Below, piece by piece: positions 1-33,004 of a stretch of 64,000 nt of DNA. The translations under genes were made by a program, and so were the position numbers. The notes below the pieces were generated by a model. It was not told where the DNA came from, did not search any database, and worked only from the letters and a program-made list of their open reading frames with translations. Within the stretch, counting starts at the first letter, position 1, and every line of letters starts with the position of its first letter. The stretch spans positions 30,719 through 94,718 of the forward strand of contig CAIQQM010000018.1 of NCBI GenBank assembly GCA_903873945.1. Reading direction: 5' to 3'. Source of the DNA: an uncultured Verrucomicrobiota bacterium. GTDB lineage: Bacteria > Verrucomicrobiota > Verrucomicrobiia > Limisphaerales > UBA8199.

Positions 1-1162
1 GGAGCGCGGGAGAATGCGCGCGATCGAGCGGGTCGGCATGCGGGTCGTACTGAGTGAAATTGGTATTCGCGGCGGTGTGACACTTGCGGCAGGTGCCTAC
101 GATGTTCTCCTTCGATAAATGCGAGCCCGGATTTGAGGTGGGCTGTATATCATGGTAGCCGTGGCAGTCGTAGCAGGCAGCAACCTCCGGCGCGACGTTG
201 GGTTTGCCCAGTGACATCGCCTTGCCGTGGTAGGTTTCGCGGTAATGCTCGAGGCGGTCCTCATGGCATCGCCCGCAGCGCTGGTCGCTAAGGGCTTTAA
301 AATTGCCTCCTTGCGGGTTCTGGATGTCGTGCGCTGTGTGGCAGTCGGTGCAGACCGGACCGCGCGGGTCATCCTGGGCCAGCAATTGCCCGTGTATGCT
401 CCGGTTGTAAGTGTTCTCGATGCCGAAGTGACATTTCCCGCATGTCTTCGCAATATTCGCGCGATAAATCGGCGAACTGCGGTCAACGCTGCGCTTGATG
501 TCGTGCATGCCATGGCAATCGTTGCAGGACGGCGCGACGATCAAACCCATCTCGATCAACCCCCGACCATGAATACTATCCAGGTACTGGACCGCCGCCC
601 GGGCATTCCGGATCTGGTAGGCTTTCGTGAGGCCCGGATTGCTATGGCACCGGGCACAGGTAGCCGGAAGGTTAAGTTTGAACACCGGCGACTCCGGGTT
701 GGAGACGGGCACGATGGCATGGGAGCCGTGGCAATCGCTGCAAACAGCCGAGCCGGAGGCACCCATTGCGTGGCTGACACCATGGATGCTGGTGGCGTAT
801 TCCCTGGCTGGTTTCTCGTGGCACTGAGCGCAATTGACCTGCCGGGCAGCGACATTGTCATCGGGATGCTTGGAAGTAATGTCGGAATGACAGCTTTGGC
901 AAGTGTTGGTCCGGTGGACCGTCGCGGCAAACCTGGCCTCATCCACGAATAAAGAGATGCCCTGGCCCGCAGTGTTCGTTTTGTAAAGCGTCTTGTCGGA
1001 ATGGCAATCGAGACAGGCATTATTTGGGTTTCTGTCGGCGGCAATGGAGGAATGGGAGCAGAGGAATAGAGCGGCCAGGAACAGGCAAATCCGAGTTCCG
1101 AACTCCGAGCTCCGAAAGAAATGCGGGTTCCCAGCAAAGGATGCCGGAGATACCGAGCGCAA
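1..1162 (-). CDS. Multiheme c-type cytochrome (at least 11 CxxCH sites), partial; 3' end runs off the window; absent from ORF track
   Basis: One minus-strand frame carries 11 CxxCH motifs, with His codons at forward positions 77,161,263,338,428,512,644,728,818,887,1001 (all = 2 mod 3). They read CRKCH,CYDCH,CGRCH,CTDCH,CGKCH,CNDCH,CARCH,CSDCH,CAQCH,CQSCH,CLDCH. The N-terminus reads ...RICLFLAALFLCSHSSIAA/DRNPNNACLDCH, which looks like a signal peptide. There is no nearby ATG; the candidate starts are TTG at 1162 or ATG at 1257. Tracked ORFs 97..513, 227..952 and 556..1251 are in other frames and have no heme motifs. Confidence 0.8.
   Translation of the reverse strand, partial: MRSVSPASFAGNPHFFRSSEFGTRICLFLAALFLCSHSSIAADRNPNNACLDCHSDKTLYKTNTAGQGISLFVDEARFAATVHRTNTCQSCHSDITSKHPDDNVAARQVNCAQCHEKPAREYATSIHGVSHAMGASGSAVCSDCHGSHAIVPVSNPESPVFKLNLPATCARCHSNPGLTKAYQIRNARAAVQYLDSIHGRGLIEMGLIVAPSCNDCHGMHDIKRSVDRSSPIYRANIAKTCGKCHFGIENTYNRSIHGQLLAQDDPRGPVCTDCHTAHDIQNPQGGNFKALSDQRCGRCHEDRLEHYRETYHGKAMSLGKPNVAPEVAACYDCHGYHDIQPTSNPGSHLSKENIVGTCRKCHTAANTNFTQYDPHADPLDRAHSPAL
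1090..1117. repeat. Heptanucleotide tandem array (tccgagt tccgaac tccgagc tccgaaa), 4 units
   Basis: Read directly from the sequence. Period 7, with the core TCCGA conserved and the last two bases variable. It lies just upstream of the signal-peptide-coding part of the multiheme gene. Confidence 0.8.
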
Positions 1163-19032: not shown

Positions 19033-20208
19033 ATGCGTAAATTCCTGAAATACTATCCCTATGTGCTGTGTGCTTGCGTCTGGTCTGTCGGGGCCGGAAC
19101 TGCTTGGACACAGGTCTGGCAGTTGAACCCGCTGGTTCAATTCAACGGCACCAACGGGGCGAATCCCAATACGGCTTTGATCCCGGGCAATAATGGCATT
19201 TACTATGGCACCACTTATAATCGCGGCAGCAACAATCTGGGCACGGTGTTCAACGTGACTACCAATGGAACGCTGACCACGCTGGTCAATTTCGCCAGGA
19301 CCAACGGGGCGAACCCCAAAGGGTTGACCTGGGGTGCCGATGGCAATCTCTACGGCACGACCTATTACGGCGGCGACAGCTCCAAAGGCACAGTGTTCGC
19401 CCTGACCACCAACGGGGCGTTGACCACGCTGGTCAGTTTCAACACTACCAATGGCGCAAACCCCAATGCGGCCTTGACGCCGGGGACGGACGGTTCTTTT
19501 TATGGCACAACCGTTTTCGGCGGTGACAACAAAGTTGGCACGGTCTTCCATGTGACCACCAACGGGACGCTGACCACGCTGGTCAGTTTCGCCAATACCA
19601 ACGGGGCGTTCCCCAATGCGGCCTTGACGCCGGGGACGGACGGCATTTTTTATGGCACAACGTCGCAAGGCGGCAGCAACAATCTGGGCACGGTGTTCAC
19701 CGTGACCACCAACGGAACCCTGACCACGCTGGCCAGCTTCAACGGTGCCAATGGCGCGTTCCCCAATGCGACGCTGACGCTGGGGCCGGACGGTTCTTTT
19801 TATGGCACGACCTTTCAAGGCGGCAGCAACAATCTGGATCTGGGCACGGTGTTCAAAATGACCACCAACGGAACCCTGACCACGCTGGTCAGTTTCAACA
19901 CCACCAATGGCGCAAACCCCGACGCGGACTTGACCCTGGGCGCTGATGGATCTTTCTATGGCACGACGTTTGGCAGCAGCAACGGACTGGGGATGCTGTT
20001 CCAATTGTCACCAGTCAGCGTGCCGCCCGTTCCTTTGGACATCAGCCCGCTTTCAAACACGGTGGTGTTAAGCTGGACCAATCCAGCCTTCAGCCTGCAA
20101 TCCGCGCCGGAGGTCTTTGGCAGCTACACAAACATTCCCGGCAGCGCGAGTCCTTACACCAATCCCATCAGCGGCGCCCGCCAGTTTTTCCGGCTCATCG
20201 AAAATTGA
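19033..20208 (+). CDS. GloVer (Gloeo_Verruco) tandem-repeat protein with C-terminal beta-sandwich-like '...FFRL' module
   Basis: 391 aa with a signal peptide. It has about 6 repeats of about 50 aa (TNGANPxxxLxxGxDGxxYGTTxxGGxxxxGTVFxxTTNGTLTTLVSF). The C-terminus is LSWTNPAFSLQSAPEVFGSYTNIPG...ARQFFRLIEN. Confidence 0.85.
   Translation: MRKFLKYYPYVLCACVWSVGAGTAWTQVWQLNPLVQFNGTNGANPNTALIPGNNGIYYGTTYNRGSNNLGTVFNVTTNGTLTTLVNFARTNGANPKGLTWGADGNLYGTTYYGGDSSKGTVFALTTNGALTTLVSFNTTNGANPNAALTPGTDGSFYGTTVFGGDNKVGTVFHVTTNGTLTTLVSFANTNGAFPNAALTPGTDGIFYGTTSQGGSNNLGTVFTVTTNGTLTTLASFNGANGAFPNATLTLGPDGSFYGTTFQGGSNNLDLGTVFKMTTNGTLTTLVSFNTTNGANPDADLTLGADGSFYGTTFGSSNGLGMLFQLSPVSVPPVPLDISPLSNTVVLSWTNPAFSLQSAPEVFGSYTNIPGSASPYTNPISGARQFFRLIEN
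19141..20010 (+). repeat. ~150-nt tandem DNA repeats encoding the GloVer units
   Basis: Near-identical blocks recur at 19264, 19411, 19561, 19711 and 19867 (aacggNacNctgaccacgctggtcagtttc...). The spacings are 147, 150, 150 and 156 nt. Confidence 0.8.
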
Positions 20209-23937: not shown

Positions 23938-25158
23938 TCAGGTTTTGCGGTTGGTGGCTTCAATCGCAGCCACCAAGCGCGGCAGCAAAGTTTCTTTGGA
24001 AAAACATTCTCCCAACGGCTCAAAATTCTGACGGCCAACTTGGGCCACGGCTGACTTCAGTTCAAGAATTGTTTTGACGGCCGACGCCGGATCGCCATGC
24101 GGTGTCCAACCGACCGGCAGCCGGCCGTTGAGCTGGTCGAGGATTTTTGAGATGTGACTGGGTCGTGGTCCCATGTAAAGAATGGGCGCATTCACCCGCA
24201 GCAAATTGTAGGCCTTGCACGGATGCACGAGGCCGACAAACGGATCGCCCATCACCACGAGATGCAGGTCCGCCGCCGAGAGCACGCCGGCCAGTTGGTC
24301 GAGCGGCTGATACGGCAGGCAGAGCACGTTCGGCAATTTGTTTTCCTGCGCAAAGGTTTTAACGCGGCGCTGCTCCGAACCGCCGCCGACAAAGCAAAAC
24401 GAAATGTCCGCCGCGCTCATGGCCAGTTCTTTCATGGCGGCGAGAACGGTGGTCAGCGGATGACACGGGCTGTGGTTGCCGGCATACATGACCACAAACT
24501 TTTTTTCCAAGCCGTGCGTTTTCCGGAATGCCGCGCGGCCGGCCGGATCAAACCGCACTTCGGCATCATGCGACCACGGCGGGATCACCGCGATTTTTCC
24601 GGCGGCGATGCCTTTCGCCAAAATCCGCCGCTCCATGAATTCATCCAGCACCACGACCACCGCCGCCTGTTTCAGACTGAAGCGGGAAAGCCGTTCGAGC
24701 CATTTCGCCGCGAATGAACCGGGCGAGAGCCAGCCGGCAGCGATAGCTTCGTCGGGATTCAAGTCCATGATCCAGTAGCAAAATTTCGCGCCGCGCAGCC
24801 GCGCATAGCCGGCGGCAATCACCGAGACCAGCGGCGGCGAGGTCAGCGCCACAATCACCTCCGGTTTCGGGAGCAGGGCCAGCCGTCTGCAACTGGAAAG
24901 GAGGAACGTCAAAAAATCCGCCGCGCGCCGCCATTTCGCGTGCTTGCCAAAGCCAGTGTTGAACACGCGAAAAATTTTGATGTCGCGCCAAGTTTCACGG
25001 GCCGGAAATTTTTTTGCCGGATCATCATAAGCCCGGCGGCTGGTGATCACCGTGACCTCATGGCCGCGTGCCGCCAAGCTGACGGCGAGGTCGGCCAGAT
25101 GCTGTCCGCTGGAAACCACATCCGGGTAAAAAGCCTGGTTGATGAGCGTGATGCGCAT
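23938..25158 (-). CDS. Glycosyltransferase, GT-B fold (GT4 family, WcaI-like)
   Basis: I trimmed the start to MRITLINQAFYPDVVSSGQHLADLAVSLAARGHEVTVIT (ATG at 25158), 2 nt after the upstream stop. The track's extension to 25365 overlaps the exosortase gene. Confidence 0.85.
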   Translation of the reverse strand: MRITLINQAFYPDVVSSGQHLADLAVSLAARGHEVTVITSRRAYDDPAKKFPARETWRDIKIFRVFNTGFGKHAKWRRAADFLTFLLSSCRRLALLPKPEVIVALTSPPLVSVIAAGYARLRGAKFCYWIMDLNPDEAIAAGWLSPGSFAAKWLERLSRFSLKQAAVVVVLDEFMERRILAKGIAAGKIAVIPPWSHDAEVRFDPAGRAAFRKTHGLEKKFVVMYAGNHSPCHPLTTVLAAMKELAMSAADISFCFVGGGSEQRRVKTFAQENKLPNVLCLPYQPLDQLAGVLSAADLHLVVMGDPFVGLVHPCKAYNLLRVNAPILYMGPRPSHISKILDQLNGRLPVGWTPHGDPASAVKTILELKSAVAQVGRQNFEPLGECFSKETLLPRLVAAIEATNRKT

Positions 25159-25160
25159 GG

Positions 25161-26786
25161 CTATTTTCCGACCTTCACCAACTTGTCCAGTTCGTCTGCC
25201 AATTCCTGCCCGGCCGCTTTGGGATCGTTGCTGCCGGTAATGATGATTTCCAAAACCTTCTGTCCCTGGTTGCCGCGGCCGGCCCAGACGCCCCGGATGA
25301 GGTTGAAGCGGGATGATTCGTCCGCCGTGTAGGTGTCCCGGCCTTCGCCAGCCTCCCAATGGCAATGATAAACCTGCAACGCTCCCTCGGAGCTGTCAAA
25401 AACGTAATGTCGCATCGGCAATTTGACACCATTCACATCCAGCACCGTCAGTTCCGGTCCGGAGACCATTTTCAAGCCGATCGCCGTCATGCAAATGTCG
25501 GGCGTGTGGCGCTTGGCCAGATAACCGGCGATGCGGCCGGGTTTCCAATCGAAATAAAACGCCTGCCAGAGGGTGCCGTCCGGGCCACGCCATTGGCCTT
25601 TCTGGCCGTCATCGAACCGCAGCAGTTCGTGTTCTTCCTCGGTCAGCGACAGCGGCTTGAAGGTCGGGTTGTTCGTGGAAAAATTCACCGACCAGTCCGG
25701 GCCGGGTTTCAAATGCGATTCGCGGATTCGATACCAAAGCTCCACGCCGCTCTCGACCGCAACCAGCCAGACGATCAAGATCAGGCCAAGCCGTTTCAGT
25801 CTGCAAAGCATGACCTCACCGTTGGCGGTTGGCGGCGCGCCCCCGCCGGGTGATGCCGGCTGGCGAACATCGGCGGGCGTGTGCCGGCGGTTCAACAGCC
25901 AGGCTGCGCTCCAGAGCAGCGCCGTGCAGACCAGCAAAATGGTTAGGCCTGCCTCGTCGTGATATTCGGCGATGGCCGCGATGCCTTTTTTTGCCGTAAT
26001 CCAAGTGAGCAGTGAGGCGCGGCAGAGATTCAACAGCATCGCCAGTGCAAAGCTGACGGGCACCAGCAGAATCCGCCGCCGCCAGTTGAACAAATAAAAT
26101 TCACCCAGAAATAGCGAAATCATCAGGCTGGATTGAAACGAGCGGATGCCGCTGCACGCATCGTTGATGCCGACGAAACCCATGCTGACTTCGATCACGT
26201 TGCCGTGCTGGATCGCCGGCACGTTCAGGAAGCTCAACACCACCACGACCAGCGCGGCGTTCATCCGGCTCAAGCCTTGGATGATCGGCGCTTCGATGAG
26301 CGTGGGCCACGGCACCGCTACCAAAAAAAACAATACTGGAAAGGCAAACTGCCGCAGCCATTTTTTCCCGCCGGCGAGATAAATGGCGTAAAGCGTCAGC
26401 CCGACGGTTTCAAAAGCCAGCAGCCATTGGACAGGCCGCCATTCCGGCGTGGCCGCTTCAATCAGCCGGGTGGGCAGATACAGAAACGCCAGCGCGCCGC
26501 AGAGCAACACCGTCAGCCAAGGATTGCCGGCCGACGAAACCTGATTTTGGTTTGCTGCGTGCAGCCAGCGCCGCAGCAGTAATCCAATCACCAGGAACGG
26601 GACGACCAAGCTGTAACTGTATTGCGGGTTTGAGGACCATTCCAGCCGGAGGTTGTCAACCAGCCGGAACCACAGATAGCCCAGCGGCAAAGCCACCAGC
26701 GCCCATTTCAGGAGGAAGCGGCTTTTCACGGATTGCCCCGGCGGAAGGATGCCCACCGCACTGGAGGAAGCTTCGGGCTTATCCAT
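25161..26786 (-). CDS. Exosortase fused to an EpsI-like C-terminal domain
   Basis: 541 aa. The N-terminal ~320 aa is polytopic and carries the exosortase catalytic motif ACSGIRS. The C-terminal ~200 aa carries the EpsI-like KRHTPDICMTAIGLK motif. Confidence 0.85.
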   Translation of the reverse strand: MDKPEASSSAVGILPPGQSVKSRFLLKWALVALPLGYLWFRLVDNLRLEWSSNPQYSYSLVVPFLVIGLLLRRWLHAANQNQVSSAGNPWLTVLLCGALAFLYLPTRLIEAATPEWRPVQWLLAFETVGLTLYAIYLAGGKKWLRQFAFPVLFFLVAVPWPTLIEAPIIQGLSRMNAALVVVVLSFLNVPAIQHGNVIEVSMGFVGINDACSGIRSFQSSLMISLFLGEFYLFNWRRRILLVPVSFALAMLLNLCRASLLTWITAKKGIAAIAEYHDEAGLTILLVCTALLWSAAWLLNRRHTPADVRQPASPGGGAPPTANGEVMLCRLKRLGLILIVWLVAVESGVELWYRIRESHLKPGPDWSVNFSTNNPTFKPLSLTEEEHELLRFDDGQKGQWRGPDGTLWQAFYFDWKPGRIAGYLAKRHTPDICMTAIGLKMVSGPELTVLDVNGVKLPMRHYVFDSSEGALQVYHCHWEAGEGRDTYTADESSRFNLIRGVWAGRGNQGQKVLEIIITGSNDPKAAGQELADELDKLVKVGK

Positions 26787-26810
26787 GTTGATTTGATTGT
26801 TGGATTGCGC

Positions 26811-27422
26811 TCATGAAATGACGCGCTGCTTGACCAGAACGGCGGGATTGCCCCGGTAAATTCCATTGGCGGCGAGATTTTTAGTCGCCACGGAACCCGC
26901 CGTCAAAACCGCGTGCGCACCAAGCGTCACGCTGGGGCCAACCCAGCAGCCAGCTCCAATCCAGACACCGTCCTCCAGCGTGATCGGCCGCGTGATCAAA
27001 TCGAAGGTGGCATGTTTGTAATCGTGGCTGCCGGTGCAGAGAAAAGCTCGCTGGGAAATGCAGACATGGCTGCCGATGACCAACTGCTCCAGGTTTAGCA
27101 GCCAGCATTCCTCGCCGAGCCAGACATGATCGCCGACCGTCAGCTTCCACGGAAATGTGATTTTGACCTGCGGCTTGATGGTGACGTTGCGTCCGATGCG
27201 CGCTCCGAATGCGCGCAGCACCGCCCGCTTCAAGGCGGAAAAACTGAACGGACACAGCCGGAACAAAATCAAGCTGACGACCAGCCAAAAAGCTTCCTTC
27301 ACCGGGCCCGCGCCCCGGTCGAACCGGCCCGGCGTATAGTGCGATAAATCCACCGGCAGCGACCGGCTTTCCGGCGCGGGAGCAGTTTGGCCGCTGCCAG
27401 ATTGGGATTGGGATTTACTCAT
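26811..27422 (-). CDS. Hexapeptide-repeat acetyltransferase (WcaF-like)
   Basis: I trimmed the start to MSKSQSQSGSG (ATG at 27422). It has left-handed beta-helix hexapeptide repeats (GSHVCISQRAFL..., GVWIGAGCWVGPSVTLGAHAVLTAGSV). Confidence 0.8.
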   Translation of the reverse strand: MSKSQSQSGSGQTAPAPESRSLPVDLSHYTPGRFDRGAGPVKEAFWLVVSLILFRLCPFSFSALKRAVLRAFGARIGRNVTIKPQVKITFPWKLTVGDHVWLGEECWLLNLEQLVIGSHVCISQRAFLCTGSHDYKHATFDLITRPITLEDGVWIGAGCWVGPSVTLGAHAVLTAGSVATKNLAANGIYRGNPAVLVKQRVIS

Positions 27423-27457
27423 TTCCTGACCAATGTAACCGGTTCGAGGCGGCGGCT

Positions 27458-28690
27458 TCAAGCATCCAAGACGCAACCGGGTTTTGCGCCGCCGCCCAAA
27501 ATCCATTGCTGGACCAACTGCAATTGCTCCGCGACGCGCGACCAAGCGAACCGCTCCACCACCAAATCCCGCGCGCGATTTCCCATCGCCAGCCGCTCCG
27601 CGCCGGTCAGGCGCTGAAGTTCGTTCAGACCCGCGACGAGACTCGGTTCGGTCGTTTCCACTTCCAGCGCAACGCCAGTTTGAAAGCCTTCCGGCAGATT
27701 GCATTCGGGCGTCATCAGAACCGGCTTGGAATTTGCCCAGGCCTCCAGCACCACCATCGGCAAACCCTCGCTGAACGAAGGCAGCACAAATGCGTCGCAA
27801 TAATGGTAGCAGGCGGCCTTGGCCGCGTTGAATTGCGGGCCGAGAAATATAATCGGAGATGGAAGATGGAAGATGGAAGATGGCGGATTATCCCGAATGT
27901 CTGCGAAGGGAATTTGTAATTCGCCGCAGAGACGTTTCAACTCCGCCTCGTGTCCGCCCTGATCCCAGCCGGCAATTGCCAAAACCCATTCTGCGGATTG
28001 CCGGTTGCCGGTTGCCGGTTGCTGATTTATCGCCCACGCCTTCAGCAAATTAACCAGTCCTTTCTTCGGATGAATCCGGCTCAGGAAGAGCAGTACTTTT
28101 TGACCCGGATCAATAAATTTTTCCCACGGCGGCGCGGATGGGGCGGTTACTGTTGGCAGATCAATTCCGTTGGGAATGACCGCGATGGTATTTTTTAGTC
28201 CAAGCTGCCGGATGGAATGGGCTTCCGACGCACACAAGGCGCGCAGACAACGTGAGCCGCTTAAATGTTCCCGTTCGAACAGCCGCCAGGCGATCTGTTT
28301 TTTCCAGCGCGAATTTTTCAGCGCCCACGGGTCGAGCATCCCGTGCGGGGAAACGAGATAAGGCCGGCTGTTGTTCCGGCTGTAATTTATCGTGGCGATA
28401 CTCGGATAAACCCAGAGACCGTGGGTGTGGCAGATGTCCGGTGCAAAGGCGTTCAGCTCCTCAAGGAATTGGGGCGACCGGCCAATCTGCTTCGGCCAAG
28501 TTGGTTTTATTGCAGCGACCGGCACCGGATGCCATGCCTTCAAATCGGCTTCGACAAATTCGTCCCATACTCCAAACACCTTTACCGCCATGCCTTGCTG
28601 GTGTTGTGATTGCACCAGACGTGACACCGCGTCAAAAAGCCCGCCGGCCTTGCGCGAAACCGATGCTGTAAGATGGGCGGACTTGATCAT
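27458..28690 (-). CDS. Glycosyltransferase, GT-B fold (GT4 family)
   Basis: 410 aa with the typical C-terminal EGLPMVVLEAWANSKPVLMT motif. It contains two heptamer arrays in loop regions. Confidence 0.85.
   Translation of the reverse strand: MIKSAHLTASVSRKAGGLFDAVSRLVQSQHQQGMAVKVFGVWDEFVEADLKAWHPVPVAAIKPTWPKQIGRSPQFLEELNAFAPDICHTHGLWVYPSIATINYSRNNSRPYLVSPHGMLDPWALKNSRWKKQIAWRLFEREHLSGSRCLRALCASEAHSIRQLGLKNTIAVIPNGIDLPTVTAPSAPPWEKFIDPGQKVLLFLSRIHPKKGLVNLLKAWAINQQPATGNRQSAEWVLAIAGWDQGGHEAELKRLCGELQIPFADIRDNPPSSIFHLPSPIIFLGPQFNAAKAACYHYCDAFVLPSFSEGLPMVVLEAWANSKPVLMTPECNLPEGFQTGVALEVETTEPSLVAGLNELQRLTGAERLAMGNRARDLVVERFAWSRVAEQLQLVQQWILGGGAKPGCVLDA
27857..27883. repeat. Heptanucleotide tandem array (agatgga x3 + agatgg) inside a GT gene
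   Basis: Read directly from the sequence. It encodes ...PPSSIFHLPSP... in the loop before the conserved FLG motif. Confidence 0.85.
27998..28022. repeat. Heptanucleotide tandem array (ttgccgg x3 + ttgc) inside a GT gene
   Basis: Read directly from the sequence. It encodes ...NQQPATGNRQSAEW... just before the second Rossmann domain. Confidence 0.85.
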
Positions 28691-28729
28691 TTCAATAACT
28701 CAAATTTGGCGATGACTTGGTCTTTCTCG

Positions 28730-30007
28730 TCACCGGCTCAACAGCAGGTTCAGCAACAGTCGGTCAATCAACCCGGCGCGCGGACGCGGATTTTTCAGCG
28801 CCACCGCCACTGCTGCGTGCAGTCCACTGGCAAACCGTTCCGGCCCCCACGCGGTAATGATGCGGCGGCTGGCGTCGCCGAAATCGCGGAGGGGAAAATC
28901 AGCGGCGGAGATTTTCAGCAGCAGTTGCGCAAGTTCTTCCACGTGGACGGGATCAAATTGAAAACCGTTCACGCCCGGCGAAACCAAGTCTGCGGCGCAG
29001 CCGCAGCGGCTGGACACCAGCACCGGCAGGCCCGAGGCCATCGCCTCGTTGACGACGAGGCCCCACTGTTCCGTCGTGCTGGCATGAACAAAAGTGCCGG
29101 CGAGTCCGAAATACACCGGTAGCTCGCCGTATTGCTTGAAGCCGGGCAGGTGGACGCACGATGCCAGACCGAGTTCGGAAATCAGCTCTTGCAAATCGGC
29201 TTTGAGCGGGCCGTCGCCGAGCAGAACCAGGCTCCAAATTTCCGATTTCCGATTTCCGATCTCCGATTTTTGAGCGAGTTCGCGATAGTGCGCAAACGCT
29301 TCGAGGAGCCGGAAGAGATTTTTTTTCTCTACAAAGCGGGCACTCGCGAGAAAATATTTTCCGGGCAAACCGTGCTGGTTTCGGATTTCCGATTTCCAAT
29401 TCCGGGCTTCATCAGCCTTGGTTGAAAAATAGTCGTTGTCCACGACATCGTAACCGAGGAAGACGCGTTCGCGGGCGAGACCAAGCTGGGCGAGGTAATC
29501 GGCGTGCGGCGCACCGCCGGACAGCCCGGCGGAATTCAGTTTCAACAGCCGGCTTTTAATCCATTCCTTCCAGGCGACGCGCGATTCGTCCCACACAGTG
29601 CTTTCCGACATGACGACCGACGGCGTGCTCGTTTCCACGCACCAAGAAAGCGCACTCAAAGCGTCAGTGGAGGCCCAGCCCGGAATCACGACGACCTGGG
29701 GTTTGATTTTGTCCAGAGCTTCCCGCATTTTGCGGTGAAGCTCCTGTTTCCATTGTCGGTCGCCGCCCTCACGATCGGTCAGTGTGATGCGCGTGAAGTT
29801 TGCCGCGCCCTCGACCTTTTTCCACGCGTAGGTATCTTCCATGGCGCAGGCTTCCACGCCCCAGACTGACATCAGCCTGCCCGCCGCATTCAAACGGGCA
29901 TGATGATACGGGCCGAACCGTTGGAATAAAACGGCAACGCGGGTTGCTTCGGTCAATCCATTTCCGGACCGGCTGACGGAGGATGCTGGAGAATAATCCA
30001 CGTTCAA
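28730..30007 (-). CDS. Glycosyltransferase, GT-B fold (GT4 family)
   Basis: 425 aa with the motif EQWGLVVNEAMASGLPVLVS. It contains two heptamer arrays. Confidence 0.85.
   Translation of the reverse strand: MNVDYSPASSVSRSGNGLTEATRVAVLFQRFGPYHHARLNAAGRLMSVWGVEACAMEDTYAWKKVEGAANFTRITLTDREGGDRQWKQELHRKMREALDKIKPQVVVIPGWASTDALSALSWCVETSTPSVVMSESTVWDESRVAWKEWIKSRLLKLNSAGLSGGAPHADYLAQLGLARERVFLGYDVVDNDYFSTKADEARNWKSEIRNQHGLPGKYFLASARFVEKKNLFRLLEAFAHYRELAQKSEIGNRKSEIWSLVLLGDGPLKADLQELISELGLASCVHLPGFKQYGELPVYFGLAGTFVHASTTEQWGLVVNEAMASGLPVLVSSRCGCAADLVSPGVNGFQFDPVHVEELAQLLLKISAADFPLRDFGDASRRIITAWGPERFASGLHAAVAVALKNPRPRAGLIDRLLLNLLLSR
29239..29266. repeat. Heptanucleotide tandem array (tttccga x3 + tctccga) inside a GT gene
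   Basis: Read directly from the sequence. It encodes ...AQKSEIGNRKSEIWSLVLLGDG..., at a position homologous to the 27998 array in the neighbouring paralog. Confidence 0.85.
29379..29406. repeat. Degenerate heptanucleotide array (tttcgga tttccga tttccaa ttccggg) inside a GT gene
   Basis: Read directly from the sequence. It encodes ...EARNWKSEIRNQHGLPG... Confidence 0.75.
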
Positions 30008-30028
30008 AAATTACCGGGTGGTTTCAAC

Positions 30029-31597
30029 TCAAACGGCAGGAGGCGGGGTGTTCATAGCGGTATTGTGGTTTTGTAAATCCGTTGGAGGCTGAACCGCCGC
30101 CACCCGTGACGGTTTTCTTTTCACAAATCCGCCCCGGGTTGAGCGCCCGGCAAAGGCGAATGGGCGGCCAACTACAGAACGCGGGCGATTGCTCGGATGA
30201 GCCGACACTTGGGCTGCCGGGGTTCTCCGGATGGTCTGGTGCGGGTGACGATCCAGCCACCATACGGCCAGTGCGCCAAATACAAACGGGTACAGGGTGA
30301 TCAGCGTGATATCGCGGCCGAGGTTGAAAGTGAGAATCAAGCCCAGACTATACAGGGGCAGCCGGCCCAATGCCTGGACATTCAAGTCCAACCGGGCCAG
30401 CCAGGCGACCCAAAGGCTCATCAATAACGCTGCGGCCGCCGGCCCGAAAAAGCGGCCAAAGTTCACCACGCCTTGACCGATGAAACCGGTGGCAATGGTG
30501 GTGTCCACCGTTCCATTTGGATTGACAGTATGATGTCCGCGAGCGATGGCATAGTCCAGCCCGATCAGGGGTTTGCCCGGCCAGAGTCCGCGCGGAATCG
30601 GGTTCACCAGTTCGGCGAAGTAGCGTTTTCCCCAATTTACCCGATAGGTGCCATTGTCTATGAAGGTGCTGATCCAACATAGTTCCTCAAACATATTCAG
30701 GCCCTCGTTGTGAACATGTTCTTCCGCACCAAGATTCAGCCCCTTTTGATGGAAGGCGGCGGTGATGGTCATGTTGGAACGGTTGGCAATGATAAACTTC
30801 ATCCAAGTGTTGACCACAAGAAAACAGGCCAGGAGCACGAGAATTTTTTTCCACATTCCTCCCCGCAGGCGCAGAAATACCCAGCTCAAAATGGCGGGAA
30901 TCACCATGGCGAGCATCATGTTTCGTGTGCGGTCAAAAATGAAAAAGGGCCACGCCAGCACGCAAAAGAGCAAGGCATAGCGGCGGATGCGGCGGTCCGT
31001 GGCCAGCGCCGCCACCACGCCGAACATCGTGGTGGACAGCAATTGCAGATAAACTGCCAGAATGGAAAAACAGTCAAAACCGACGCCGATTTGCCCGTGC
31101 GACCAAGGACTGACCTTGTAACCCAAAAATGGAAACAGGTAGTAAATGACCTGTCCTTTGAGCACCAACACCGAAACCAGAAACAGGATGACCCAAACCA
31201 CGGCGCATCCAAAAAACAGCAGGTTCAATTGCCGTTGGATCGTCGGATAGCCGACCCCGTGCTGAAACAACTGGAGCACGCCGCTGCGACGATTGAAATA
31301 ACGGGCATTGATTGACTGGTGAACGGGCGGGGTGGCCACGAGAAACACCAACAGAAACCAGGCCACTTGCCACCAGGCTCCGGACAACGTGGCGGCGTCA
31401 AACAGCTTGGCATGATTGTTTGCATAATCGTTGTAAAACACATCGCCCACATACCAGGTTGCTGCCGTGCCGAGAACCGCCAGCAAGGGCAGCCCCGTGC
31501 CATCGTTCAAACGCTGGAACGCCCCAATGCCGCCGCCTATAAGCAAGGCAATCACCACCCAAAAAGAGACGGGCATTATGAACAAAAGTTGAAACAT
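30029..31597 (-). CDS. Polytopic membrane protein, Wzy-type polysaccharide polymerase-like
   Basis: 522 aa with many TM helices and one large loop. It sits in a GT-rich EPS locus. The ~80 aa basic, Pro-rich C-terminal tail is unusual. Confidence 0.55.
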   Translation of the reverse strand: MFQLLFIMPVSFWVVIALLIGGGIGAFQRLNDGTGLPLLAVLGTAATWYVGDVFYNDYANNHAKLFDAATLSGAWWQVAWFLLVFLVATPPVHQSINARYFNRRSGVLQLFQHGVGYPTIQRQLNLLFFGCAVVWVILFLVSVLVLKGQVIYYLFPFLGYKVSPWSHGQIGVGFDCFSILAVYLQLLSTTMFGVVAALATDRRIRRYALLFCVLAWPFFIFDRTRNMMLAMVIPAILSWVFLRLRGGMWKKILVLLACFLVVNTWMKFIIANRSNMTITAAFHQKGLNLGAEEHVHNEGLNMFEELCWISTFIDNGTYRVNWGKRYFAELVNPIPRGLWPGKPLIGLDYAIARGHHTVNPNGTVDTTIATGFIGQGVVNFGRFFGPAAAALLMSLWVAWLARLDLNVQALGRLPLYSLGLILTFNLGRDITLITLYPFVFGALAVWWLDRHPHQTIRRTPAAQVSAHPSNRPRSVVGRPFAFAGRSTRGGFVKRKPSRVAAVQPPTDLQNHNTAMNTPPPAV

Positions 31598-31679
31598 AGG
31601 TGACCGGTTGATGAGCTTAAAAACTATGTCCGCTGATCAAAATATTCAAATGCAGGCATGTGGAATCATGGGAAACAGT

Positions 31680-32930
31680 TCACAGCAAACCCGATTCCAA
31701 CCGCATCAGGTCAACCGCCAGCCGGTCGAGGGTGAACTGGCTGGCTTTAATTAAGGCCGCCGCCGACTGTTTGGTCAGCAAATCAGGTTCCGCCAAAAAA
31801 CGCCGCAGTGTCTGCGCCAGCGCGCTGGCATCACGCGCCGGAATCAAAAAACCATCCACGCCGTCGCCAACCACTTTGCCGCAGCAATCCGTGACGATGA
31901 CCGGCAGGCCATGTGCCATCGCCTCCAGTTGAGTAATGGCAAACCCGTCCGAGAGGGTTGGCAAAACAAAAACATGAGACCGCCGATACCAGCTTGCCGC
32001 CTGATCGCGAACGGCACGGCCATGAAATGTCACATTGCGCGGCGCGGTTGCCAAGGCTGTTTGAGAAATACCGATGGTTCCCACCACGTCAAAATGAATG
32101 TTCTCCCGTTCCAGTTGCCGCGCCGCTGCGAGGAGATATTGAATGCCCTTGCGCAAAATCACCTGGCCAAGAAACAACACCCGCAACGGCTTATCCGGTT
32201 GCCGGTGGTTGATGGCCGCTGGCCGATTTATTCCATCGGGCTCATAGCACAGCGGAATGACAATCAATTTTTCCGCCGGGACTCTCTGCCGGAGGAGGGC
32301 CTGGCGGGAAAATTCCGAATTGACCACGACGCGGTCGGCCGCCTTCCATTCCCGTTCCCTGCGTGCAAAATACTCTTCCGGCACCTGAACCGGTTGAAGC
32401 GCCCAGCCGGGCCACTGTTTTTCCTCCGCTCGAACCAGTTCCACTTCGACGCGGTTTGGATCCATCTGGTTCAAAATGCATTTGACGTCCCGCTCCCGGC
32501 ACCATTCGAGAGCTTCCAATGCTCCGGTGTCATAGGCAAAAAAAATGAAGTCTCGATTTGCCTCCAGCCGGCGCTTCAATTCTCCCCGCACGCATTGAGC
32601 AAACCGCCGGCCAATTTTAATGAAACCGTGATAAGGTGTTTGTCGGGCGGCAATATTTCGCAAGTGTTTTTCCCAGAAAAGCGCCCGGACGTTCCATGAT
32701 TTGATGGTTGCCGTGCTGATGGTTTCAAAGCCGGGGTGACAGCGCGCACCCAATGGACGCAACGGACCCACAAATGATTTGCGAAGCATCCGCCCGGCCC
32801 AGAAATCAGTGCAAAGCGTCACTGACCGTCCGGCTTGCTGCAGGGCGCGCGGAATGGCGTAGTGTTCGCGCGCGCCGATCTGGCTGCAAATCCAGACTGG
32901 AAATTTTTGACGGCTGGCGGCCATGTTCAA
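31680..32930 (-). CDS. Glycosyltransferase, GT-B fold (GT4 family)
   Basis: 416 aa with the motif LSDGFAITQLEAMAHGLPVIVTD. Confidence 0.8.
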   Translation of the reverse strand: MNMAASRQKFPVWICSQIGAREHYAIPRALQQAGRSVTLCTDFWAGRMLRKSFVGPLRPLGARCHPGFETISTATIKSWNVRALFWEKHLRNIAARQTPYHGFIKIGRRFAQCVRGELKRRLEANRDFIFFAYDTGALEALEWCRERDVKCILNQMDPNRVEVELVRAEEKQWPGWALQPVQVPEEYFARREREWKAADRVVVNSEFSRQALLRQRVPAEKLIVIPLCYEPDGINRPAAINHRQPDKPLRVLFLGQVILRKGIQYLLAAARQLERENIHFDVVGTIGISQTALATAPRNVTFHGRAVRDQAASWYRRSHVFVLPTLSDGFAITQLEAMAHGLPVIVTDCCGKVVGDGVDGFLIPARDASALAQTLRRFLAEPDLLTKQSAAALIKASQFTLDRLAVDLMRLESGLL

Positions 32931-33004
32931 AATGGATTATGGAACGCGTCCAACATATAAACCTCGAACAGCGTCAGCCAGCAGGTCAGAACATTTCCAT
33001 CAAA

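Follow-up and report, generated by a model that had tools for sequence, protein, structure and literature searches.

Two adjacent glycosyltransferase genes, GT1 and GT2, lie in an exosortase/EPS locus within the window (the whole stretch of 64,000 nucleotides that was analysed), and each contains two tandem arrays of 7-nt units (Table 1). Public assemblies give GT2 a length of 380 or 408 aa. The two proteins are paralogues with 27% identity, and their closest named homologues come from Verrucomicrobiae MAGs. Proteins P0001-P0120 served as the orthologue set for GT1 and P0121-P0240 as that for GT2.

Table 1. Glycosyltransferase genes and heptamer tracts in the 64-kb window (TRF, Tandem Repeats Finder).
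Feature	Position	Strand	Description	Detection or domains
GT1	27458..28690	-	410 aa, GT4 family, GT-B fold; arrays 1 and 2	Pfam Glycos_transf_1, Glyco_trans_4_4, Glyco_transf_4
GT2	28730..30007	-	425 aa from TTG, GT4 family; arrays 3 and 4	Pfam Glycos_transf_1, Glyco_trans_1_4
Array 1	27857..27883	-	(AGATGGA)x3.9 on + strand, (TCCATCT)n in sense	TRF 100%
Array 2	27998..28022	-	(TTGCCGG)x3.6 on + strand, (CAACCGG)n in sense	TRF 100%
Array 3	29238..29269	-	(ATTTCCG)x4.6 with one mismatch, (AAATCGG)n in sense	TRF 92%; exact part 29238-29260
Array 4	29379..29401	-	degenerate (TTTCCGA)x3.3	TRF 87%
Weak tract	1090..1117	not assigned	TCCGAGT TCCGAAC TCCGAGC TCCGAAA	TRF score 33-47, period 7/14

Heptamer Arrays in the Window

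Arrays were detected with Tandem Repeats Finder and with a scan of the whole window for exact runs (at least 2.5 copies, periods 7-12). The exact-run scan returned three runs of period 7, namely arrays 1 and 2 and the exact part of array 3, and none of periods 8-12. Third-order Markov simulations of the window give a chance expectation of about 0.01 period-7 arrays per window. The four arrays that the original prediction had placed in two adjacent glycosyltransferase genes are thus confirmed. All four are coding, none contains a G3 run, and they are small (3.3-4.6 units) and mid-gene (codons ~205-278 of 410-425). A fifth array had also been proposed. A tract is indeed present there, but it is weak and consists of four degenerate TCCGARN units outside any Pfam-recognisable gene. 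It is probably intergenic or within an unrecognised ORF, with only a loose kinship to the other arrays. We rejected an assembly artefact as the source of the arrays, because the identical sequence occurs in independent assemblies from three different ENA accession series.

The ORFs translate through all four arrays in frame and give the peptides originally predicted. Array 1 encodes SSIFHLPSP (residues 270-278) in loop B, the coil that separates strand E262-264 from strand E280-282. Array 2 encodes QQPATGNRQ (residues 221-229; loop A), which takes up the final turn of helix 210-223 and continues into a coil; in the AlphaFold model of GT1 this coil is followed by a helix at 230-234 and a strand at 235-243. 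Array 3 encodes KSEIGNRKSEI in the GT2 loop homologous to loop A, and the alignment of GT1 with GT2 bears out the earlier claim that arrays 2 and 3 occupy corresponding loops of the paralogues. Array 4 encodes WKSEIRN in the linker that joins the N- and C-terminal domains. The GT1 model has a mean pLDDT of 72.7, and both tract peptides are largely coil and sit in locally low-pLDDT blocks. Together with the orthologue alignment, the model confirms the prediction that the arrays are insertions in variable loops.

The tracts that could be mapped in orthologues fall between residues ~179 and 389, and none of 74 is in the N-terminal domain. Most are held in a few position clusters, at ~179-194, ~208-251 and ~261-297 in GT1 and at ~199-213, ~240-249, ~269-300 and ~362-389 in GT2. 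Their peptides are rich in S, R, K, E, Q and N. Across orthologous loci the array density per kb is 0.42 in GT1 and 0.53 in GT2, and 0.07 elsewhere. This 6-8-fold concentration over neighbouring genes may be beyond what tolerant loops alone explain.

Reading Frame and Length Stability

As the original prediction stated, the gain or loss of one unit frameshifts the gene; for both GT1 and GT2 the computed product is truncated or frameshifted. A change of three units lengthens or shortens the protein by 7 residues. It follows from the sequence that all three frames of a heptamer tract encode the same cyclic heptapeptide. Length classes 21 nt apart are observed in the orthologues, with loop A measuring 39, 60 or 81 nt (the short form in locus L154 is (AATCGGA)x2.1).

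Five same-species loci, L001-L005, from independent assemblies show 100% identity to the window over the arrays, and all same-species contigs anchored on the neighbouring 522-aa gene have a 410-aa GT1 and an intact GT2. Same-species contigs were reached first by way of the exact GT1 protein and later by way of the neighbouring gene; among those with DNA available no copy-number variant was found, in a comparison of consensus assemblies that is blind to minority length variants within populations. Protein variants with 97% identity retain the arrays, and the 90% protein clusters contain substitution variants only. In one 97% variant (P0243) an R replaces the W in array 4, which makes the tract more regular. 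In the nearest species, represented by L209 and L210 (77-78% nucleotide identity), arrays 1, 2 and 4 are unchanged in length and show only point changes or another unit; array 1, for example, has point-mutated units in both. The array 3 site is longer by 42 nt in L209 and by 90 nt in L210.

Frameshifted orthologues numbered 0/80 for GT1 and 0/47 for complete GT2, where the GT1 set is the best 80 of 567 tblastn matches and so favours intact genes, while GT2 and the other ORFs were not chosen in this way. We also looked for pairs of ORFs in two frames at 374 heptamer arrays in 200 related loci and found no clear frameshift. Six candidates were unconvincing: the five that were inspected resemble joins between neighbouring genes, and the one in L034 is close to where a long ORF starts on the opposite strand.

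Unit Turnover at Conserved Sites

The sites of the arrays recur in orthologues with different units. The array 2 site holds other heptamers or a form 21 nt shorter, and at the array 4 site AAAGCAG, CAGAAGT and further arrays occur. At one site, with no difference in length, the window has CAACCGG, L209 a degenerate mix and L210 perfect AAAGCAG. The resulting loop peptides are unrelated to each other (KSEIGNR, QPATGNR, KAESRKQ, TLNSQPS, QVSGQWS, PPVSGLRS); many orthologues lack the loop insert altogether, and inserts are kept across many others.

Several comparisons show units changing together. Between L131 and L137, which are 87% identical, one G/A change is repeated in four successive units. 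Shared units are more frequent between tracts of one genome than between tracts of different genomes (9.1% vs 2.9%; permutation p ~0.01, counting units at most one base apart). In L210, AAAGCAG occurs at both the GT2 linker site and loop A of GT1. L126 and L127 are 86% identical and have unrelated loop-A tracts with diverged flanks, a pattern that looks like replacement or recombination rather than slippage. The allele classes of loop A do not track overall identity to the GT1 of the window.

Period-7 Excess Beyond the Window

The original prediction had offered a dispersed 7-mer repeat family as an alternative to switching, and this part is supported by an excess specific to period 7 in orthologous loci and in unrelated phyla. 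In 753 kb of orthologous loci, picked by protein and not by repeat, period 7 accounts for 117 arrays and period 8 for 18, and no other non-multiple period exceeds 4. In these loci, period 7 alone has a heavy tail of run lengths. The 860 kb flanking (AAATCGG)3 matches, from more than 12 phyla, contain 122 further heptamer arrays and at most 8 of other periods. About four units is a common size in related loci, and heptamer tracts of like type are also found outside genes. The tracts of the window are confined to the two glycosyltransferase genes and those of related loci, including L209, occur in several EPS genes, a comparison in which the window is only 64 kb of its genome.

Among the matches listed, (AAATCGG)3 occurs in at least 120 species of many phyla. 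We rejected a common origin of this repeat across phyla: there are approximately 1,170 unit classes, so such counts may be ordinary. The species count covers this one unit and is not used here; the evidence across phyla is the period-7 excess in the flanks only. The arrays are not specific to surface-polysaccharide genes: housekeeping proteins of other phyla carry (AAATCGG)n in frame, with examples in the linker of MutL, between the helicase domains of HrpB, and within RecJ, ThiD, MoeA and others. A special association with glycosyltransferases across phyla was also rejected, since the Pfam domains of 74 array-bearing ORFs belong to all kinds of proteins. In the ORFs of other phyla the reading orientation that yields hydrophilic KSEIGNR is found 66 times, vs 28 for PISDFRF.

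Comparison with Known Heptamer Systems

It had been suggested that no equivalent is described, and this is wrong. That heptameric SSRs are over-represented in bacteria has been published together with a polymerase-slippage hypothesis (Rehm et al., 2015, PMC4692102, citing Mrazek, Guo and Shah, 2007), and phase variation through heptanucleotides is established for neuO (PMC13001214). The heptameric long-unit SSR class has head-to-tail 7-nt units, typically in 2-26 copies with about 4 preferred (PMC4692102; Mrazek, 2007). The tracts of the window match this class in their head-to-tail 7-nt units, their copy number and the excess specific to period 7. The arrays of Xanthomonas (GGGAATC) and Nostoc (GGGGA(C/T)T) share with the window tracts the period-7 excess, a preference for about four units, and variation in length and sequence between related species; they occupy many sites in each genome, with a unit typical of that genome (PMC4692102). 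The window unit GGAAATC is one base from GGGAATC. However, the Xanthomonas and Nostoc arrays are mostly intergenic (7-11% are intragenic in Xanthomonas), are G-rich and have been proposed to form G-quadruplexes (PMC4692102), whereas those of the window are without exception coding and in frame, contain no G3 run, and are found again at the same loops in orthologues. They belong to the general heptameric SSR class and not to the GGGAATC/GGGGAYT subclass.

The STRR units of heterocystous cyanobacteria are CCCCAGT, TTGGTCA and CAACAGT, and the window units TCCATCT, CAACCGG and AAATCGG do not match them. STRR and the TAACTGA repeats of Beggiatoaceae, Cyanobacteria and Bacteroidetes (PMC4679880) are likewise dispersed tandem heptamers, with intragenic copies at the insertion-tolerant periphery of proteins. 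They differ in having other units and in lying mostly between genes or upstream of start codons, where translational regulation has been proposed, and TAACTGA produces stop codons in one orientation (PMC4679880).

Two known systems of heptanucleotide switches can be compared. The (AAGACTC)n tract in neuO, carried by phage CUS-3 of E. coli K1, has 3-53 units at the 5′ end of the gene and is OFF in 65.6% of genomes (PMC13001214). It is also a coding 7-nt repeat in an enzyme that modifies a surface polysaccharide, it gives a full-length product only when in frame, and its heptapeptide repeat is translated. However, neuO varies between strains and within cultures, whereas the window tracts are mid-gene, do not vary within the species and were in no case OFF among the orthologues examined. 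The heptanucleotide SSRs of Haemophilus influenzae (hmw1A/hmw2A promoters and a TonB-dependent receptor gene; PMC2651432) share the potential for slipped-strand change, and some are intragenic. They have 6-38 units, vary among strains, show observed frameshifts and belong to a host-adapted pathogen; no such property was seen for the window tracts.

Origin and Role of the Arrays

We interpret the four tracts as intragenic heptanucleotide microsatellites in the interdomain linker and in two loops at the surface of the C-terminal Rossmann domain, and we give this reading, together with the mechanism that follows, a probability of roughly 0.7. The tracts would form, and later change, when strands misalign in replication or repair, by a process with a specific preference for units of 7 nt; our counts show the excess of period 7, and its biochemical cause is inferred. 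Because 7 and 3 share no factor, gain or loss of one or two units shifts the frame and would destroy the donor-binding domain, and purifying selection would let through only net changes of three units, equal to 21 nt or 7 codons. Tracts would persist only where a mostly hydrophilic, flexible insert of 7 residues is tolerated, which fits the clustered positions of the arrays and their amino acid composition. Over time the units may be replaced by concerted evolution, possibly aided by short-tract conversion within one genome, with tract length mostly kept while the units change. Simple slippage cannot go from two to five units at once, so expansions of that size imply either non-functional intermediates or some other process, for example conversion or unequal exchange. 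The net outcome would be slow variation of loop length and sequence in quanta of 7 residues, not reversible gene switching, and the tracts most likely have no dedicated function.

The original prediction also proposed a contingency locus like neuO, in which slipped-strand ON/OFF switching of the two EPS glycosyltransferases alters the exopolysaccharide in subpopulations. Polysaccharide glycosyltransferases in an exosortase/EPS locus are a gene class typical of phase variation, the unit is not a multiple of three, tracts are 6-8 times denser in these two genes than in their neighbours, an expansion from two to five units would pass through OFF states, and heptanucleotide switching of a capsule-modifying enzyme has a firm precedent in neuO. 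However, tract length is invariant in same-species assemblies and in the 97% variants, and for three of the four tracts it is so even at ~22% DNA divergence; the OFF alleles so common in neuO were absent from the orthologues examined; the tracts have 3.3-4.6 units, against 3-53 in neuO and 6-38 in H. influenzae, and are not near the 5′ end; and like tracts are found in housekeeping genes. Switching is not supported by these data, which contain no sign of it, and we consider it very unlikely. Selection on the protein could instead maintain the tracts if the loops required a repeated flexible heptapeptide such as KSEIGNR as a linker or interaction motif, with the DNA periodicity as a by-product. 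The preferred orientation of KSEIGNR in other phyla, the enrichment in S, R, K, E, Q and N, and the retention of loop inserts in many orthologues all point this way. But the exact repetition has a period of 7 nt, synonymous positions included, and not of 21 nt, the same loop is filled by unrelated peptides or lacks the insert in many orthologues, and tracts also lie outside genes, all of which makes this explanation improbable.

The heptamers might also act in cis, as sites for an RNA-binding regulator or as G-quadruplex-like or other non-B DNA, in the regulatory manner proposed for GGGAATC and TAACTGA (PMC4692102, PMC4679880). Beyond these published proposals, units are shared more within a genome than between genomes, and about four units are frequent, as in Xanthomonas. 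Yet the unit at a given site varies freely among orthologues, the lack of G3 runs leaves no canonical G-quadruplex, no candidate binding protein was found, and the tracts lie within coding sequence at positions set by protein structure; we regard this explanation as very improbable. Dispersal driven by recombination, through short-tract conversion or ectopic exchange within a genome or between relatives, would account for the unrelated loop-A tracts of L126 and L127 (whose flanks are also more diverged), the repeated AAAGCAG of L210, the sharing of units within genomes and the loop-A classes that do not follow identity, and tracts might then serve as micro-homology joints for swaps of glycosyltransferase segments. 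However, most differences between close relatives are changes in place, no chimeric glycosyltransferase was demonstrated, and tract length is at or below the usual need for homologous recombination; we consider this explanation very unlikely. It is unlikely, though slightly less so, that the tracts are an actively homogenised genome-wide family, spread by conversion between tracts and kept preferentially in the loops of EPS glycosyltransferases, giving 7-residue quanta together with slow polysaccharide switching via rare OFF intermediates. If it were true, the family would be an evolvability device as well as a handle on the bacterial preference for 7-nt repeats.

Implications

Read as heptanucleotide microsatellites in tolerant loops, the arrays show that a non-triplet repeat inside a polysaccharide gene does not by itself make a phase-variation switch, which removes a tempting false positive. 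The contrast between neuO, with about 66% of genomes OFF, and tracts of the type in the window, with none OFF, is usable for calling switches. For annotation, peptides such as KSEIGNRKSEI in environmental proteins are to be taken as loop inserts derived from repeats, not as motifs. The glycosyltransferase orthologues form a clean natural series, with differing perfect units at the same loops, length steps of 21 nt and clear concerted evolution. With this series one could ask what makes bacteria prefer repeats of 7 nt, a puzzle noted in 2007, and it could also reveal how coding sequence tolerates and shapes microsatellites.

Heptamer Tracts in Two Glycosyltransferase Genes

Tandem Repeats Finder recovered the four period-7 arrays that the original prediction had placed in two adjacent glycosyltransferase genes, GT1 and GT2. 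All four fall between 27857 and 29401. An exact-run scan of the whole window found no exact array of at least 2.5 copies with a period of 7-12 besides those in GT1 and GT2; third-order Markov simulations of the window give an average of 0.01 such heptamer arrays. The odd peptides read from the sequence were also recovered on translation. A fifth array had been proposed; it consists of only four units, which are degenerate and lie outside any recognisable gene.

Coordinates of the repeats and genes in the window (tracts 1-4 as reported by Tandem Repeats Finder)
Feature	Coordinates	Strand	Repeat	Peptide or product
Tract 1 (GT1)	27857-27883	-	AGATGGA x3.9, 100% matches	SSIFHLPSP
Tract 2 (GT1)	27998-28022	-	TTGCCGG x3.6, 100% matches	QQPATGNRQ
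Tract 3 (GT2)	29238-29269	-	ATTTCCG x4.6, 92% matches	KSEIGNRKSEI
Tract 4 (GT2)	29379-29401	-	TTTCCGA x3.3, 87% matches	WKSEIRN
GT1	27458..28690	-		GT4-family glycosyltransferase, 410 aa
GT2	28730..30007	-		GT4-family glycosyltransferase, adjacent to GT1
Proposed fifth array	1090-1117		TCCGARN x4	
Hexamer repeat	27400-27415	-	(GATTGG)x2.7	SQSQS
Long tandem repeats	19223-19982		~150 nt (5 copies) and ~300 nt (2.2-2.5 copies), 74-77% matches	
ORF with long repeats	19033..20208	+		391 aa

The surrounding polysaccharide locus encodes an EpsH exosortase, a hexapeptide acyltransferase, a PF00953 (Glycos_transf_4) transferase and further glycosyltransferases. It is probably verrucomicrobial, and the closest named GT1 homologs are in Verrucomicrobiae MAGs (P0033 carries that label). 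Two homologs, P0005 (73% identity to the window protein) and P0050 (66%), are labelled "Candidatus Paceibacterota" and "Candidatus Binatia" and may come from mis-binned contigs. GT1 and GT2 are 27% identical, and the tracts starting at 27998 and 29238 (29239 in the original prediction) lie in aligned loops, as had been proposed.

Two other repeats were seen in the window. The hexamer lies just downstream of the GT1 stop and is an in-frame period-6 tract adjoining the heptamer-bearing genes; on the minus strand it is read near the N-terminus (MSKSQSQSGSGQ...) of the hexapeptide acyltransferase in its shorter (203-aa) start call. The long tandem repeats are probably a repeated 50-residue protein module; contigs of the same species have a corresponding 391-aa gene call, for which no Pfam hit is recorded.

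Period-7 Excess and Distribution

The tracts are genuine and particular to period 7. Across 753 kb of orthologous loci, which were picked by protein similarity and not by repeats, there are 117 exact period-7 arrays, 18 of period 8 and at most 4 of any other non-multiple period; the run-length distribution is heavy-tailed for period 7 alone. A smaller period-8 excess (18 against at most 4 for other non-heptamer periods) accompanies the heptamer excess in the 80 loci with GT1 orthologs (L126-L205). When one genome from each GTDB species was scanned for exact (AAATCGG)3, at least 120 loci carried it, where calculation gives about 0.3 by chance. The 860 kb flanking these loci hold 122 further heptamer arrays against at most 8 of any other non-multiple period. 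Both excesses support the dispersed 7-mer family of the original prediction. The matches listed include Verrucomicrobiota, Planctomycetota, Bacteroidota, Acidobacteriota, Gemmatimonadota, several proteobacterial classes, Nitrospirota, Chloroflexota, Cyanobacteria and others. We do not take these matches as a sign of common origin, as the scan covered a single unit.

(AAATCGG)n tracts are read in frame in the inter-domain linker of MutL, between the two helicase domains of HrpB, between PSCyt domains, and inside RecJ, ThiD and MoeA. Since in-frame tracts occur in all kinds of proteins, heptamers in coding loops are no speciality of surface-polysaccharide genes. Among the matches listed, the hydrophilic KSEIGNR reading outnumbers the antisense PISDFRF by 66 to 28. 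Many other tracts are found shortly before a start codon or where a gene ends. In two Pyrinomonadaceae MAGs (L057:1899-1923 and L024:2827-2853), only a few bases separate the end of an (AAATCGG)n tract from a downstream ORF beginning MSRIGKK(P/I)IT, which resembles ribosomal protein L6; heptamer tracts would therefore also occur in the 5′ leaders of core genes.

Loop Inserts in Orthologs

The tracts are confined to loops and a linker, and are kept in frame. That they are insertions in variable loops was borne out by aligning 120 GT1 homologs, which at the site of tract 2 (loop A) carry either heptamer-derived inserts (NRKSEIGNRKSE, NQKSEIRNQKSE, NRQSAIGNRQS, QKPEVRSQKPE, QKAESRKQKAE) or a form exactly seven residues shorter. 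The site of tract 1 (loop B) is also hypervariable. In ortholog DNA, the exact loop A arrays are built of AAATCGG, AAATCAG, AGAAGTC, GGAAAGC, GCAATCG, GGAGCAA, GGTCAGT, AACTCTC, CTCCGGT and others, with length classes that include 39, 60 and 81 nt, i.e., 21-nt steps; the short form in L154 is (AATCGGA)x2.1. Array density is 0.42 per kb in GT1 orthologs and 0.53 in GT2 orthologs against 0.07 elsewhere, and the two genes are 6-8 times richer in tracts than their neighbors. Most array positions are in the linker between the domains, in loops A and B and, in GT2, at a C-terminal site; none of 74 mapped arrays is in the N-terminal domain. In four distant GT1 relatives (L192, L195, L203, L204) the matched region spans 1.56-1.78 kb against the usual ~1.2 kb, and the gene therefore appears to hold large insertions.

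In the AlphaFold model of GT1 (mean pLDDT 72.7), both tract peptides are mostly coil and lie in blocks of locally low confidence. Residues 221-229 include the last turn of helix 210-223 and continue as coil ahead of helix 230-234 and strand 235-243, and strands 262-264 and 280-282 flank residues 270-278. The peptides encoded by tracts show an enrichment of S, R, K, E, Q and N. The predicted structure and this composition fit tolerated loop inserts.

Stability of the Tracts and the Switch Hypothesis

The original prediction also offered the tracts as slipped-strand on/off switches. In simulations, each gene is truncated or frameshifted when a single unit is gained or lost, and three units alter protein length by seven residues. 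Both the observation and the arithmetic on which the idea rests are therefore correct. Judging from the reading frames, a change of one or two units would destroy the C-terminal domain. The established heptanucleotide switch, neuO of Escherichia coli K1, encodes a capsule-modifying enzyme, carries (AAGACTC)3-53 at its 5′ end, and needs a multiple of three units to be read through; in 65.6% of 64 complete genomes it is OFF (PMC13001214). Heptanucleotide tracts of Haemophilus influenzae have 6-38 units and vary from strain to strain (PMC2651432). In contrast, the tracts here have 3.3-4.6 units, lie mid-gene and are invariant, and no OFF state was seen in the sequences examined; because of this we reject switching as the main explanation and consider it very unlikely. 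Thus, of the two readings originally put forward, the repeat family holds and the switch does not.

Their invariance was seen at several levels. Five contigs that encode exactly the window's GT1 protein and come from independent ENA assemblies match the window at 100% wherever they cover 25000-33000, including the GT2 tracts, which the GT1-protein look-up does not constrain, although consensus assemblies can hide minority length variants. Contigs anchored through a neighboring 522-aa gene have intact genes of the usual length wherever they reach GT2 or GT1. Protein variants of ~97% identity have 11-12 substitutions outside the tracts and unchanged tract peptides, bar one W/R point change in the degenerate tract 4. 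In L209 and L210, from the species nearest to that of the window (77-78% DNA identity), tracts 1, 2 and 4 have exactly the same length, tract 1 having accumulated only point changes, whereas at tract 3 there are in-frame length differences of 42 and 90 nt. GT1 is intact, as a single full-length aligned segment, in 80/80 metagenomic ortholog loci (46-76% identity; pre-selected as best matches), and GT2 in all 47 copies not cut by a contig end. Among 374 exact heptamer arrays in 200 fetched loci, 209 fall within one long ORF, 159 at the edge of an ORF, in intergenic DNA or at the end of a contig, and six where two frames meet. Five of these six, on inspection, look like junctions of adjacent genes; the sixth (L034) is close to where a long ORF begins on the opposite strand.

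Turnover of Units

The tracts are stable within species; between species the units are replaced and lengths differ in 21-nt steps. The tracts are therefore evolutionarily active over the time in which species diverge. One site has the same length in three loci, yet its unit is perfect CAACCGG in the window, perfect AAAGCAG in L210 and a degenerate mixture in L209. Between L131 and L137, whose GT1 genes are 87% identical, one G/A change recurs in four consecutive loop A units, which is concerted evolution with length unchanged. L210 has perfect AAAGCAG at both the GT2 linker (298-323) and GT1 loop A (1848-1884), where the window and L209 have other units; this hints that tracts of separate genes may be homogenised with each other. 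Over all orthologous loci, different sites share an identical unit in 9.1% of within-genome pairs against 2.9% between genomes (permutation p ~0.01 when up to one base of difference between units is allowed). The GT1 genes L126:5594-6844 and L127:265-1554, with 86% DNA identity, have unrelated loop A tracts (AACTCTC-type and AGAAGTC-type) with flanks that are unusually diverged locally. The AACTCTC-type loop is also in L178 and L196, only 49-52% identical to the window GT1. This suggests that loop A was replaced by recombination, through exchange of loop segments.

We infer that the tracts arise and turn over by strand slippage preferring 7 nt, with length changes filtered by purifying selection; short-tract conversion between tracts may contribute. 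By the sequence itself, all three frames of a tract give the same cyclic heptapeptide. We think it improbable that the tracts form an actively homogenised repeat family that serves to vary the loops of EPS glycosyltransferases or to switch these slowly.

Relation to Known Heptamer Repeats

An over-representation of heptameric repeats in bacterial genomes is described by Rehm et al. (PMC4692102), citing Mrazek 2007. Xanthomonas genomes have ~190 GGGAATC arrays each, with four units preferred, mostly intergenic and differing in length between species (Rehm et al., PMC4692102); tracts 3 and 4 are built of GGAAATC, a single base different from GGGAATC. TAACTGA arrays have intragenic copies at the protein periphery (MacGregor, 2015, PMC4679880). 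Recurrence at the same loops of orthologs was not found in the cited literature on heptamer arrays. By their likeness to published arrays, the tracts thus belong to an already described class: they are bacterial heptamer repeats in an intragenic, in-frame and non-G-rich case within an EPS locus.
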